DNA of 56,616 nucleotides, the filler included, from Chthonomonadaceae bacterium (lineage in GTDB: Bacteria; Armatimonadota; Chthonomonadetes; Chthonomonadales; Chthonomonadaceae): the NCBI GenBank assembly GCA_035650735.1. It is 2 parts of 2 records of this genome, joined end to end, with 100 filler letters (N's around TTAATTAATTAA, not from the genome) between each part and the next. Parts side by side here need not be neighbours in the genome. Positions count along the whole stretch, not along the records: positions 25,600 to 56,616 come from DASRGZ010000220.1; 1 more part is not named here. One strand, written 5' to 3'. Of this stretch, positions 11,430 through 42,232 are shown one piece after another. Numbering within the stretch: position 1 is the stretch's first letter; every line of letters starts with the position of its first letter. The position numbers and the translations under genes are program-made. Under the pieces are notes generated by a model. It had not been told where the DNA came from, made no database searches, and saw nothing but the letters and a program-made list of their open reading frames with translations.

Positions 11430-11948
11430 GATCTCGGGCGGTTGCAGTTGGTGTCGCAGAAAAGAGGCATCGCTCCTATGCCGGGCATATCCTCGGCAGG
11501 AGAGATCCTTATTTGCAATTGAAAATGTCCCGGCTTAAAAGGCCAACGATGCTTCCGGACAAAAAATCGGGACCGTCTTTAAGGACGGCCCCAATGGGAG
11601 GGTCTGTATCTCACGTTCTCTGTGTGGAACGCACATCGGTAAATCGAAATGGAGTGCTTGTTCAGCCCTCGCAAGCCAGCCCGGCGACTATGCGGGCGGC
11701 CATTCTCATATGGCGGCAGCGCGGCCCTGCCTCCGCAGCCAGCCTGCGCGCCGGCTCCGCACAAGAGGCAGCGTGGGAAATCTACGCTTTTTCAGCTAAA
11801 AGCGCACGGGATGCGAATGTGACAATCGTGCGATAAGGAACGGAGAGCCGATCCGACACTCGACTACTCCGCAATGGAGGCGGAAAGCGGAAAGGGGGTT
11901 TTTCGGCGTTCACGAGCCCCTCGCGCTCTATGCCTCGCAGCCTAATTT

Positions 11949-25499: not shown

Positions 25500-25599
25500 N
25501 NNNNNNNNNNNNNNNNNNNNNNNNNNNNNNNNNNNNNNNNNNNTTAATTAATTAANNNNNNNNNNNNNNNNNNNNNNNNNNNNNNNNNNNNNNNNNNNN
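25500..25599. other. Artificial contig linker / assembly gap
   Basis: Run of N containing TTAATTAATTAA (stops in all frames) at 25544-25555. Confidence 0.98.
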
Positions 25600-37133: not shown

Positions 37134-37934
37134 TTAGTAATGCAAGCCCCAGGAGCCATCCGCCTTCTTGAAGGGCACCCCGCGCAGTTCCGGCTTATCC
37201 AGGTAGGGACCGTTATCCGTGACCTTCCAGTAGAGAATTGCTCTGCCATCCGGAGCGTAACCGCCGATCTGCTTGTTCGTATCATCGAGCCAGGGCTTGG
37301 CATGGACGGGTTTGGCATGGCTATCCGCGAAGGACGCATTCACCGTGCCGTGATGCCGCGCCTGAATTGGCTCATCCATCATGGTGAAATAGGCGTCCGG
37401 CAGCGTTCCGTTGGCATCGCAAAACACGGCGGTGTCCGCCGGGTACTCAACTTCTGCCATCGTCTTGACAGGCCGCCCGTTATCGGGACCGAAGAAGTTG
37501 CTCGGATCGCCCCAATCGATCAAGGAGAAGTTGGGAAAGTAGCTGATGTATTTCAGCGGTGGTGAGGCGGGGCAGGGCGGCGGCATGGAGATGACATCCA
37601 TGGCCTTCGGGAAATCGAGCGCGTTGGGATTGGATGGGCACTGATAGACCTGCACGTTCTTGAGGTAAGGGACAAGCGCGACCCAGGCAACGAACACGCA
37701 AGGGCTCGGCCCGTTGTTACTCATGTACATATTCATCGGAAACGTTTCGTCATAATCCTGGACGTAGAGCGCGGTCGCCGTGCCGATCTGCTTGGTGTTG
37801 GACAGGCAGGAGACGCCGCGCGCCTGCTCGCGCGCTTGGGCGAACACAGGGAAGAGAATGGCCGCTAAAATGGCGATGATAGCGATGACTACAAGCAGTT
37901 CGATGAGCGTAAAACCTGAGCGATGGCGTAACAT
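37134..37934 (-). CDS. Prepilin-type / DUF1559 / H-X9-DG protein
   Basis: [30 protein letters not shown] and [21 protein letters not shown]. Confidence 0.92.
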
Positions 37935-38017
37935 GAATGCAGTCCTCCTTGATTTGATTGAGAAGATGACGAGGGATTCGAGCCTGGGTGGCACGCTGCC
38001 ACAGTATAGACAAGCCA

Positions 38018-38077
38018 GCTTAAATTCGGGTTAAACGGATATTAAAAAAATTTCAGCCGAATTTAAGCCTCAGTTAA
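38018..38077. promoter_or_regulatory. Phased TTAA boxes inside an inverted repeat in the divergent promoter region
   Basis: TTAA at 38020, 38031, 38042, 38063 and 38074; 12-bp IR GCTTAAATTCGG / CCGAATTTAAGC. Confidence 0.6.
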
Positions 38078-38136
38078 TCCTGGTTTGCTATATTGATCCT
38101 CGTCAGCTTACCTGCGTGGAAGGAGTAGAAACCCAA

Positions 38137-38856
38137 GTGAAGCCTCGTCGCGGGTTTACCCTCATTGAACTGCTCGTGGTCATCGCCATTATAGCGGTTT
38201 TAGCGGCTATTCTCTTTCCGGTGTTCGCTCAAGCGCGCGAGAAAGCCCGCGCTATCAGTTGCCTATCCAACTGCCGTCAGCTCGGACTTGCCATTCAGAT
38301 GTACGCTACCGATCATGACGAAGCCTTCCCCTGCTCATGCATGATAGGAATGAGCATGGGGACAGACATGACGGCTCAGAATAGCCAGAGCTGGTTAGAC
38401 ACGACCCTGCCCTACATCAAGTCGCGTGGTCTCTATCACTGTCCCTCAGATAACAGTCCTCTTTGGAGCAGCATGGATACGCCACGTCAGTCCTCCTATG
38501 GCTTTAATGCCTACTTCATCCCTATCCAGGCTCCCTATTATGGAGTGCGCATGGGGCAAATAAACCGACCGGCGGAATGCATCCTGGTGTCGGAGTTGGC
38601 GGACACCTGGCAGCAAGATTTCTTCAGGCCCATGTACTGGGGCGATCCGCCGAAAATCCAGGATGCGGACATGCAGATGATGGAGTGGGACAGGATGCAG
38701 CAAGAACCGATGAGCCTGGCCATTCGGCGACATCAGCAGGGAGCCAACTATGTCTTTGCCGAAGGCCATGCGAAATTCCAGCGATTCTCCCAGACCTTCC
38801 GGCAGACAGCGGGCAGCCCTCCCAGCGTAGACTGGTACGATCCCTTAACACCGTAG
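38137..38856 (+). CDS. Met-rich prepilin-type / DUF1559 / H-X9-DG-like protein
   Basis: [12 protein letters not shown] and [13 protein letters not shown]; Met-rich stretches [13 protein letters not shown] and [10 protein letters not shown]. Confidence 0.9.
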
Positions 38857-38915: not shown

Positions 38916-39905
38916 ATGAAACCGATTCTCATTAGCCTGGTAGCCTGCGTGCTCAGCTTACCCATGCTCGCCCTAGCTCAGAGCAAGGCTGAAGTCGTCT
39001 CCAAGGGTAGCCGTTTTGAGGTAAAGAAGGTTTTGAAGGCAGAGGGCACAACCGTCGTGCTCTTCCTTCAGGAAACCAGCCTGATGGAACAGCAGTTTCT
39101 GGCCGAGTTGCAGAAGCAGTTGCCCGAGGACGAGAAGGTCGTGTTGCGTGTGGTGACTTTGAAAGACACGGCCGCGCCCGCTGCCCAGCAGTACCAGATT
39201 ATGGCCACTCCGACGGCTCTTGTCTACGACCGGTTTGGACGGGAACTGGCCCGTACCTCGCAACCTGAGGCGATTCGCGCAGCAGTCCGCAAGGGGCAAC
39301 TCATGGCGCGCCTCTACTGGATTGATGAGGATAATCCGAAAGCGCCCGAGGTTTACGGCGCACCGCCGGAAGCGTTGAAACGAGGCTTGCCGGGCATCGT
39401 CAAGACCATGGGGCTGCGTCCAGATGCCTACAGGATGTTCCAGGTTATGTCGGAGATCCACTTCACGGACGGCTTCCTTAAGCGGCGTGAGCATGAGATG
39501 GTCGCCGCCTATGTCTCCGCAATCAACCACTGTAAGTTTTGAGTGGGTTCGCACGCCGCCGCGTTGCAGCGGCAAGGAGTGAGCCAGGAGCTTGTGGATG
39601 CGATTGGTACCGATGATTTTAGCAAAGTGACCTTCGCCCAACAGGATCTCGCCCTGCTCAAATTCGTCAAATTGCTTACGCTCAATCCCGCCCAGACGCG
39701 CGATGCCGATGTGTAAGCGATGCGGGAGGCCGGATGGACGGACGAGCAGATATGGGAGACAGCGCTGGAGGTGAGCATCTTTTCGTTCCTGAACCGCATG
39801 GCGGATGCATATGGGCTGGATTACCCATCAGGTGGATGGTATCCACCGCAACTGCGGGACAAGATCGAGCGAGAGAAGCAGAAAGATAAGGGGGCCTCCA
39901 AATAG
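38916..39905 (+). CDS. Probable exported selenoprotein: Cys-less thioredoxin-like domain fused to an AhpD/carboxymuconolactone-decarboxylase domain (CxxU); also has an internal TAA
   Basis: The frame reads VSAINHCKF-TGA(39540)-VGSHAAAL...DADV-TAA(39714)-AMREAGWTDEQIWE...FLNRMADAYG. AhpD similarity spans both stops and the TGA aligns to the second Cys of CxxC. Confidence 0.8.
39546..39585 (+). promoter_or_regulatory. SECIS-like hairpin
   Basis: Lower stem GGTTCGC/GTGAGCC, upper stem GCCGC/GCGGC, and a small G-starting apical loop about 20 nt after the UGA (folded by eye). Confidence 0.55.
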
Positions 39906-40059
39906 GAAGAAGCGCCGCCCGCCCCGTTGAAGTGAAAATGATCCTCGTCAGCTTGCCTGCGGGGAAGATGCCCTACGGAAATTGCCCTGCTGCCCTGTTT
40001 CGACAGGGCAGCAGGGCAATCGTTTATGCGGCTTACCATCCAGGGCAAACGCCGGGACT

Positions 40060-42168
40060 TTATGCCGGGGCGAGGCTGAGTTCGACCTCCACGGTGCCGA
40101 GGGCCTGGACTGTGACGTTGGGCACGATCTCGGTGTAGGCCATCAGCGGCAGCGTCGGCAGCGACCGCTCGATCAGGCGCTTGAGGGGCAGGCGGATCTG
40201 CCCGGAGCAGAGCAGTATCGGATTGGCGCCCTGTTCCGTCGCTTGGTCAACCTGCTGCGAGAGGGACTTGATCAGCGCCTGGGCCAGACGCGGCTCAATG
40301 GCGAGCATGTTTCCGGTGGGCGTGGCCTGCACTGCCTCCCGCAGCTCCTGCTCCAGCGCCGGAGCCAGCGTGATCACATAGATAATACCGCTGTCGTCCT
40401 GGTGCTGCTTGCAGATCTGGCGGGCCAGCGCCGCGCGAGCGAACTCGGCCAGCGCGTCCAGGTCGTTGGTGCGTGGGGCGAAGTCGGCCAGCGTCTCCAG
40501 GATGGTGGCCAGGTCGCGGATACTGACGCGCTCCTTGAGCAGGGCCTGGAGCACCTTCTGTACTTCGCCCAGCTTGAGCAGGTTGGGTATCAACTCATCC
40601 ACGGCCGCAGCGTCGTTCTGCTTGACGTGCTCCACCAGCTTCTGCGTCTCCTGGCGGGTCAGCAGCTCGGCGGCGTAGGTCTTAATGACTTCGGTCAGGT
40701 GGGTGATGAGCACCGAGGACGGGTCGGCCACGATGTATCCGGCCATCTCGGCGCGCTCCTTGAGGGAGCGGGCGATCCAGAGGGCGGGCGTGCCGAAAGC
40801 GGGCTCGGTGGTCTGGATGCCCTCGAATTGCTGGGTGACCAGGCCCGAGTCCATGGCCAGCACGCAATGCGGATAGAGCTCGTGGGTCGCTACGGTCGCG
40901 CCCTTGATTTTGATCTGATAGGTGTTGGCGCGCAGTTGCAGGTTATCGCGGATGCGCACGGTCGGCAGGATAATGCCCAGTTCCATCGCGATCTGCTTGC
41001 GCACGCCGCCGACCCGTTCGGCCAGATCCCCGCCCTCCTCCGGCAGTGCCAGCGGCACCAGGTTGCTGCCCAGTTCTAGCTCGATGACCTCCACGGAGAG
41101 CAGCGGCATCACGTTCTCCGGGCCTTTGGGCACGCTGGCGGCGGCAGCGGCCTTCTCCTCAGCCTCTTTGGCCTGCCGGGCGCTGCGTTGCTCGTTGCGC
41201 GTCAGCACAAAGGCGAAGCAGCCGAGGCCGGCGGCCAGCATCAGCAGTTGTGGCTTCGGGAAGCCGGGCAGCAGCAGCAGCACGAGGAGCAGGCCGGTGA
41301 CAATTCCCAGCGGGCGCGGGCGCATGAAGAGCTGGGCCACAAAGTCCTGGCCCATCGGGCGCTCCGAGGCGGCGCGAGTGACCATCAGGCCCGTCGCCGT
41401 CGAGATTAGCAGCGCCGGGATCTGACTGACCAGCCCTTCGCCGATGGTCAGCAGCGTATACTGCTGCAACACCGACATAAAGTCGCCGCCGCGCGCCATC
41501 CCCAGCGCGAACCCACCGACAATGTTGATGATCAGGATCAGCACGGCGGCCATGGCGTCGCCGCGCACGAACTTGCTCGCGCCGTCCATCGCGCCGTAAA
41601 AGTCGGCCTCGCGCTCGATGGTCTGGCGCCGCTCCTTGGCCTGGGCCTCGGTGATCAACCCGGCGTTCATGTCGGCGTCAATGGACATCTGCTTGCCAGG
41701 CATGGCGTCGAGGGTGAAGCGCGCCGCGACTTCGGCAACGCGCCCGGCGCCGTTGGTGATGACGACAAACTGGACGACGATGAGGATAAGGAAGGCGATA
41801 ATCCCGACGATATAGGAGCCGCCGACAACGAACTGGCCGAAGGCGTTGATCACCGCGCCCGCATGTCCGCTGCCCAGGATGAGCTTGGTGGCCGCGATGT
41901 TGAGGGCCAGCCGGAACAGGGTCATCACCAGCAGCAGCGAGGGAAAGATGCTGAACTGGAGCGGCTCGGTGTTGTAGAGGGCGACGAGCAGGATAGTGGA
42001 GGCGCCGGTGATGTTAACGACGAGCATTGTATCCAGCAGCCACGCAGGTAGCGGGATGATGAGCATCGCCACAATGAGCATGAGCAGGGCGGCAAGCGCC
42101 ATATCGCTGTGGCGGGCGGCGCGGCTGAGTGGGGACGCAGCGACGGATGAACCGGGAACAACGGCCAT
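40060..42168 (-). CDS. flhA: Flagellar export gate protein FlhA
   Basis: FPSLLLVMTLFRLALN, RVAEVAARFTLDAMPGKQMSIDAD, FYGAMDGASKFVRGD and ERVSIRDL; ATG at 42168 with SD AAGGAG. Confidence 0.96.
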   Translation of the reverse strand: MAVVPGSSVAASPLSRAARHSDMALAALLMLIVAMLIIPLPAWLLDTMLVVNITGASTILLVALYNTEPLQFSIFPSLLLVMTLFRLALNIAATKLILGSGHAGAVINAFGQFVVGGSYIVGIIAFLILIVVQFVVITNGAGRVAEVAARFTLDAMPGKQMSIDADMNAGLITEAQAKERRQTIEREADFYGAMDGASKFVRGDAMAAVLILIINIVGGFALGMARGGDFMSVLQQYTLLTIGEGLVSQIPALLISTATGLMVTRAASERPMGQDFVAQLFMRPRPLGIVTGLLLVLLLLPGFPKPQLLMLAAGLGCFAFVLTRNEQRSARQAKEAEEKAAAAASVPKGPENVMPLLSVEVIELELGSNLVPLALPEEGGDLAERVGGVRKQIAMELGIILPTVRIRDNLQLRANTYQIKIKGATVATHELYPHCVLAMDSGLVTQQFEGIQTTEPAFGTPALWIARSLKERAEMAGYIVADPSSVLITHLTEVIKTYAAELLTRQETQKLVEHVKQNDAAAVDELIPNLLKLGEVQKVLQALLKERVSIRDLATILETLADFAPRTNDLDALAEFARAALARQICKQHQDDSGIIYVITLAPALEQELREAVQATPTGNMLAIEPRLAQALIKSLSQQVDQATEQGANPILLCSGQIRLPLKRLIERSLPTLPLMAYTEIVPNVTVQALGTVEVELSLAPA

Positions 42169-42232
42169 AAACGGACGGACTCCTTGGGAAGGGTCATGCA
42201 GCAAAAGCGGTATAGTATGGGTTCATCCGTTA

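Follow-up and report, generated by a model that had tools for sequence, protein, structure and literature searches.

A gene family of the phylum Armatimonadota, marked by an in-frame TGA codon with a hairpin behind it, on balance likely encodes a selenocysteine (Sec)-containing, predicted exported thiol/selenol reductase of the AhpD type, and the copy in the genome analysed here has likely been inactivated by a second stop codon. This copy lies at positions 38916..39905 on the plus strand of the window, the whole stretch of 56,616 nucleotides that was analysed, in which runs of N occupy 25500-25543 and 25556-25599 and only positions 25600-56616 map to contig C220 of the source genome (G000). 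Alignment with full-length homologues gives a gene of 329 codons, which starts with the ATG at 38916 and contains the TGA as codon 209 and a premature TAA as codon 267. In a sample of 401 genomes of the phylum, the family was found in 26, which belong to six families, and the database homologues are assigned to Chthonomonadaceae/Chthonomonadales. Among the best 120 of 144 database homologues, 118, one of them being the window's own product, end at C-x-x, and the other two are a full-length protein with CKFC and a protein ending earlier. The truncation of these 118 proteins at the TGA hides the family almost completely from databases. The only match in the ESM Atlas is a 210-aa cluster, mostly of Armatimonadota. 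One family copy, on a single metagenomic contig (L087:1620-1780), has an apparent frameshift in the N-terminal domain, which may be an error.

The TGA codon and the hairpin behind it

The TGA (39540..39542, plus strand) is preceded by NHCKF and followed by VGSH in the same frame, as stated in the preliminary description, and the family alignment upholds the further claim that it takes the place of the second cysteine of the AhpD CxxC...H motif. The alignment consists of 53 distinct copies pooled from genome and metagenome loci after removal of near-duplicates, leaving out L079 and L089, which stop short of the site, and the distant single-domain loci L090-L095, six in number. The survey of codon 209 for Cys or TGA that had been proposed as a check gives TGA in 50 copies and Cys in 3. 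Six further proteins carry Cys (P0003, P0127, P0145, P0147, P0154 and P0156), some of which may be the same as the Cys loci of the 53-copy set. Among the genomes with a Cys copy, G328 has selB, and G267, which is 84% complete, has no selB over the cut-off. Full-length family matches, 14 in number, are found in 12 of 60 relatives, with exactly one TGA in each. The proposed check of the Sec machinery is also positive: selA, selB, selC and selD are all present in the source genome, with profile scores, all over cut-off, of 453 bits for selA, 369 for selB, 375 for selD and 71.7 for tRNA-Sec, and its selD itself contains one TGA. Gene callers end the protein at codon 209, as would be appropriate for a plain stop or a nonsense mutation. 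Against this, the site is either TGA or Cys in all 53 copies, the frame past the TGA is conserved, the hairpin is restricted to TGA copies and the Sec machinery of the genome is complete. The chance of an ordinary stop is therefore negligible, and it is almost certain that the TGA is a Sec codon in the family.

The bacterial SECIS-type hairpin is located at 39555..39573 on the plus strand, with a GUU loop starting 20 nt past the TGA. By a rule that demands a GU loop and at least 4 contiguous pairs, and that was set after the sequences were seen, a hairpin past the TGA is counted in 48 of the 50 TGA copies, in 0/3 Cys copies and in 0/50 upstream controls, the two exceptions among the TGA copies being L109 and the window's own copy. 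All 24 close copies have GCG at codon +7 and TTG at codon +8 from the TGA, and 23 of them have CGG at codon +9; upstream of the TGA, synonymous variation is seen at every position except Met. These three codons make the stem with the GUU loop 20 nt past the TGA. Distant copies have another hairpin, 25 nt from the TGA, with an AGUU or GGUC loop. Paired cells make up 85% of a hairpin alignment of 15 sequences, compared with 33-63% for slid partners. According to PMC13188914, the bSECIS model comprises a loop of 3-9 nt with G in the first two places, a stem of 4-16 bp and a distance of 16-37 nt from the TGA, and the 20-nt and 25-nt types both fit this model in loop and spacing. The hairpin of the G000 selD has a GUU loop, too. 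The two hairpin registers of the family, one at 20 and the other at 25 nt past the TGA, and its natural Sec/Cys pairs provide a ready-made test set for SECIS rules. In another genome, L119 and L125 (G084:C1:1467960-1470349) are tandem paralogues, both leaderless, one with Cys and no hairpin and the other with TGA and a hairpin.

The preliminary description had noted a SECIS-like hairpin from the window's DNA. A hairpin is indeed present and is conserved in homologues, but in the window's copy by itself it does no better than chance (fold of 60 nt, z -0.67, 49/200 shuffles as good), and so the support for it comes from the homologues and not from its own fold energy. The A at 39568, unique among the 24 close copies, produces a C-A mismatch, and the hairpin fails the strict count; the alternatives are 5+2 pairs or a slipped stem of 5 pairs closing a 6-nt loop that starts with GU (about -11 kcal/mol), the slipped register still being within the bSECIS model. 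Since the hairpin can refold in this way, A39568 is not counted as a proven lesion, and its role as a second lesion of the gene is not established.

Predicted signal peptide, thioredoxin-fold domain and AhpD domain

The N-terminus carries a predicted cleavable signal peptide (38916..38978, plus strand), as had been claimed. Sequence pattern and hydropathy reveal a basic start, a hydrophobic core and an A-x-A end, which is ALA in the window's copy, and no twin-arginine motif. By a simple hydropathy count, 45 of the 51 copies that could be assessed begin with a hydrophobic leader, and the six leaderless copies are five from genus g61 and a metagenomic one. The earlier statement that the protein is exported thus finds support in most members but does not extend to the whole family: export is not needed by all members because 6/51 copies lack a leader, and on the strength of the leader sequences it is very probable for most of them.

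The leader is followed by a thioredoxin-fold domain without cysteines (38979..39302, plus strand), as indicated by models, Foldseek, profile mapping and conservation. The AlphaFold model of an intact homologue, L046, with the leader removed has a pLDDT of 94.9 and a pTM of 0.85, and the model of the window's N-terminal domain (pLDDT 89.9) has the same strand-helix order. The full-length L046 model's N-terminal part matches thioredoxins in Foldseek with E about 1e-4, and in a profile search of 1.84 billion proteins with the N-terminal domain the family members rank first and thioredoxins next; the thioredoxin call depends on this full-length model and on the profiles. WCxxC is present in 62 of the 150 matches listed and aligns on T54-S55-L56-M57-E58 of the family, so that the CxxC dithiol of thioredoxins is absent and SxxE (39078..39089, plus strand) stands in its position, the profile mapping WCxxC onto TSLME. 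T98-P99 (39207..39212, plus strand) occupies the cis-Pro position, with P99 in 53/53 copies. The segment TPT..VYD..GRE and the lack of cysteine in the N-terminal domain, both pointed out in the preliminary description, are seen in the window's sequence, and no cysteine occurs between residue 26 and the CxxU motif in 117 of the best 120 of 144 database homologues. Its term "redox-dead" is apt insofar as there are no cysteines and CxxC has become SxxE, but the site is constrained, S55 and E58 each being kept in 51/52 copies; more distant proteins vary there.

The AhpD-type peroxidase-related domain (39390..39815, plus strand) matches TIGR01926 over residues 159-300 and contains E194, C206-K-F-U209 and H213. 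Read through both stops, it scores 90.5 bits against a curated cut-off of 81.8, and four homologues score 84-92 bits; the 266-aa product scores 53.7 bits, under the cut-off. U209 occupies the place of Cys133, the attacking cysteine of AhpD. E194, C206 and H213 are invariant in 53/53 copies, and the spacing of E194-C206-U209-H213 equals that of the AhpD relay Glu118-Cys130-Cys133-His137 as given in PMC3141380. The best fold matches of the L046 model are the AhpD-like structures 6k40, 3c1l and 2prr (E 4e-10 to 1e-8). The source genome has a short leaderless AhpD-type gene with CFYU as well (L042, G000:C142:34446-34829, minus strand), and such genes are found in most genomes of the family.

The fold of the L046 model also matches that of the debrominase Bmp8 (6ohj, E 1.7e-5), and a deiodinase-like gene with an in-frame TGA lies about 0.7-1.8 kb upstream in L047 and L066. 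Both observations would suit a family of reductive dehalogenases or similar small-molecule reductases resembling Bmp8, in place of peroxide or disulfide reductases. This is very unlikely, because the peroxidase-related AhpD structures score far higher (E 4e-10) and the deiodinase-like neighbour is present in only 3/36 loci.

The second stop in the window's copy

The TAA at codon 267 (39714..39716, plus strand) lies 62 codons short of the family's end. Of the 52 copies covering the site, 51 have a sense codon there (CAG in 20, GAG in 19, GAA in 5 and others in 7), and only the window's copy has TAA. An open frame from the TGA to the family C-terminus, present in the 51 others, is thus absent here. 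This stop was missed in the preliminary description, whose claim that the frame completes an AhpD fold fails, and the predicted mis-annotation as two short genes turns out to be three pieces of 208, 57 and 61 aa in the output of public gene callers. The TAA falls in helix 242-250 of the L046 model, and the lost part holds a 24-residue helix, 255-278. By conservation and model, this long helix and N293-R294 belong to the orphaned 61-aa C-terminal piece (39720..39905, plus strand), and N293 and R294 are invariant in all 50 copies covering them. Since the TAA removes the last long helix, the window's copy is probably a recent pseudogene. No 329-aa protein is expected in this genome unless the TAA is read through, of which there is no sign, and we regard it as highly likely that the copy is inactive.

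Recoding of the TAA was rejected, because in G000 792 of 2517 long open frames terminate in TAA and none of the 50 tRNAs is a suppressor of TAA or TAG, and because no homologue has TAA. General decay of the gene was rejected as well, since the copy deviates at 3 of 85 conserved positions, where the median is 2. Conserved positions are changed at 2/89 sites before the TGA, 3/27 between the stops and 1/30 after the TAA. The rest of the copy being nearly normal, the loss is probably recent.

The same limited decay, the hairpin that can still form, the position of all active-site residues ahead of the TAA and an in-frame ATG 3 nt past it would also be compatible with a copy that still works, either as a 266-aa selenoprotein or with a re-initiated 61-aa piece (from 39720) completing the fold. 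According to PMC3141380, the structure of the catalytic two-helix motif of AhpD does not depend on the oligomer state, so that some residual activity is conceivable. Nevertheless, the lost part contains the 24-residue helix together with residues invariant in 50/50 copies, the 61-aa piece is leaderless and would not follow the exported part, and a search among proteins of 31-100 aa yields a single candidate (1/1), the window's own fragment, and no other split form. A working copy is therefore improbable. An assembly error that hides an intact gene is still harder to sustain. The TAA is confined to a single lineage, 6 of the 7 runs compared are marked as possible sources of the window's DNA, and the comparison was made on contigs, not reads, all of which would allow an error. 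On the other side, the contigs of runs X1, X3 and X6 have the TAA and match the window without any difference, X1 and X3 spanning the stretch and X6 covering the gene; the contigs of X2, X4, X5 and X7 have T at 39714, only the first base of the TAA being compared; the runs bear four study codes, and the same stop is found in L070. These observations render an error highly improbable. Inactivation by the TAA thus remains the preferred reading, and the window's copy is poor material for bench work, for which intact homologues are preferable.

Neighbourhood, possible function and known systems

Upstream of the selenoprotein gene lies a DUF1559 gene with a prepilin motif (38116..38856, plus strand; Pfam PF07596 and PF07963, and alignment), which is of another type than the DUF1559 subfamily linked to the family elsewhere. 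The two genes are bracketed by a 29-nt direct repeat (left copy 38094..38122, right copy 39939..39967, both plus strand), 27/29 identical and with only two copies in G000, and the bracketed 1.85-kb block has 56.5% GC compared with 63% for the genome. These features suggest that the block was recently inserted, in line with the differing neighbourhoods of the close copies; a tree resolved no donor for the block, and a promoter and terminator scan gave nothing above shuffles. A second, divergent DUF1559 gene is located at 37134-37994 (minus strand), with an 18-nt inverted repeat at 38018-38068 between the two DUF1559 genes. A perfect 18-nt inverted repeat at 39981-40020 lies just past the gene 40060-42204 (minus strand), which we take to be FlhA-like. 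Elsewhere in the family, short cytoplasmic AhpD genes with CFYU, CHYU or CYYU flank four copies (L056, L066, L084 and L086), and L066 has three TGA genes in a row.

Of the 40 copies whose upstream sequence is 900 nt or longer, 15, from both main clades, have the linked DUF1559 subfamily as their immediate upstream neighbour on the same strand, and 16 have it within 1.5 kb upstream. This subfamily has an extra cysteine pair, with four invariant cysteines in 16/16 sequences, and it is present in 16 of the 26 genomes with the selenoprotein gene compared with 31 of 401 overall. The association invites the idea that intact members are periplasmic disulfide catalysts (reductases or isomerases) dedicated to this one pseudopilin-like subfamily, the client being bound by the SxxE thioredoxin domain. 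Conversely, 10 of the 26 gene-bearing genomes have no subfamily match and 15 of the 31 subfamily-bearing genomes have no selenoprotein match (drafts, with 8 candidates scored per genome in both cases), and other genes adjoin the majority of close (clade A) copies. The two do not always occur together, and related genomes are not independent of one another. A dedicated client is accordingly doubtful, and it is similarly a rather long shot that Armatimonadota possess a periplasmic module of two genes, one for a specific DUF1559 pseudopilin-like protein and the other for an AhpD selenoenzyme that looks after the disulfides of this protein and whose thioredoxin domain has been turned into an SxxE docking site. 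If true, the AhpD fold would serve a specific client as a Dsb-like catalyst beyond the cytoplasm, and the large DUF1559 family would gain its first functional handle; the link to one subfamily is in any case a testable lead for this large family of unknown function. The subfamily was not found in G000, and loss of the partner as the cause of the TAA is unsupported, because genomes with intact copies (G001, G020, G032, G033, G053 and G056) also have no partner match.

For the preferred reading, a thiol/selenol reductase, the following steps are proposed. In intact copies, SelB would read the hairpin and insert Sec, and the chain would then be exported. U209, activated by the H213-E194 relay, would attack a peroxide or a client disulfide, C206 would resolve the product to a selenenylsulfide, and DsbD-fed periplasmic redoxins would re-reduce it, with the cysteine-free thioredoxin domain taking no part in catalysis and serving to dock the donor or the client. 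In this genome, the TAA would drop the last long helix and leave a truncated 266-aa chain. DsbD-fed redoxins are proposed because cytoplasmic AhpD draws on lipoamide donors, to which an exported protein has no access. Lipoamide proteins are the electron source of known AhpD, whose substrates are AhpC or peroxides (PMC8945050). As these donors are absent outside the cytoplasm, AhpD chemistry there must rely on another electron route. The electrons could come from a full DsbD, VKOR homologues and a leader-bearing UxxC redoxin, all of which G000 has; DsbB was not found in G000. On contig C83 of G000 (minus strand, TGA near contig position 11778), a leader-bearing protein with a C-terminal UxxC redoxin is another candidate exported selenoprotein; to our eye, its N-terminal part looks LolA-like.

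The family is almost certainly a real selenoprotein family, with a new architecture within the known class of AhpD CxxU selenoproteins. With it, selenoprotein lists gain an architecture, and AhpD chemistry may extend beyond the cytoplasm. No NCBIfam 20.0 model covers the whole protein, and no description was found in the literature searched, although subscription journals, supplements and BSepDB entries (PMC13326102) could hold members under a generic name. AhpD-like CxxU selenoproteins have long been predicted (TIGR01926/COG2128; PMC2398784 and Table 1 of PMC13188914). Among the 119 families in the table of PMC13188914, AhpD/CMD is represented by four stand-alone entries and by a methyltransferase fusion, and none of the 119 has an architecture with a leader and a cysteine-free thioredoxin domain, in keeping with the initial impression that the exported thioredoxin-like fusion is unusual. 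The family shares with these proteins the CxxU motif and a C-terminal domain that passes the TIGR01926 cut-off when read through, and differs from them by the leader and the N-terminal domain. The AhpD-related CFYUT selenoprotein of NF041238 also has an AhpD-type CxxU, but family members score 44-56 bits, the window's protein 51.3, all under its cut-off of 175. The arsenite methyltransferase/AhpD fusion of NF041537, again with an AhpD-type CxxU, demonstrates that AhpD selenodomains can be fused, but it has no match to the family and its partner domain differs. DR1765 (6k40), Mlr4105 (3c1l), 2prr, Mycobacterium tuberculosis AhpD, whose donor is lipoamide/NADH (PMC8945050), and PA0269 are alike in fold and in Glu...CxxC...His spacing, but unlike the window's family they have Cys and a single domain; at the position of AhpD His132, the family has Phe in 33/53 copies and Tyr in 20/53. 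The nearest relatives of the N-terminal domain are exported WCxxC thioredoxins (e.g. P0164-P0166), which match Pfam Thioredoxin and, unlike the window's family, keep the dithiol and carry no AhpD domain.
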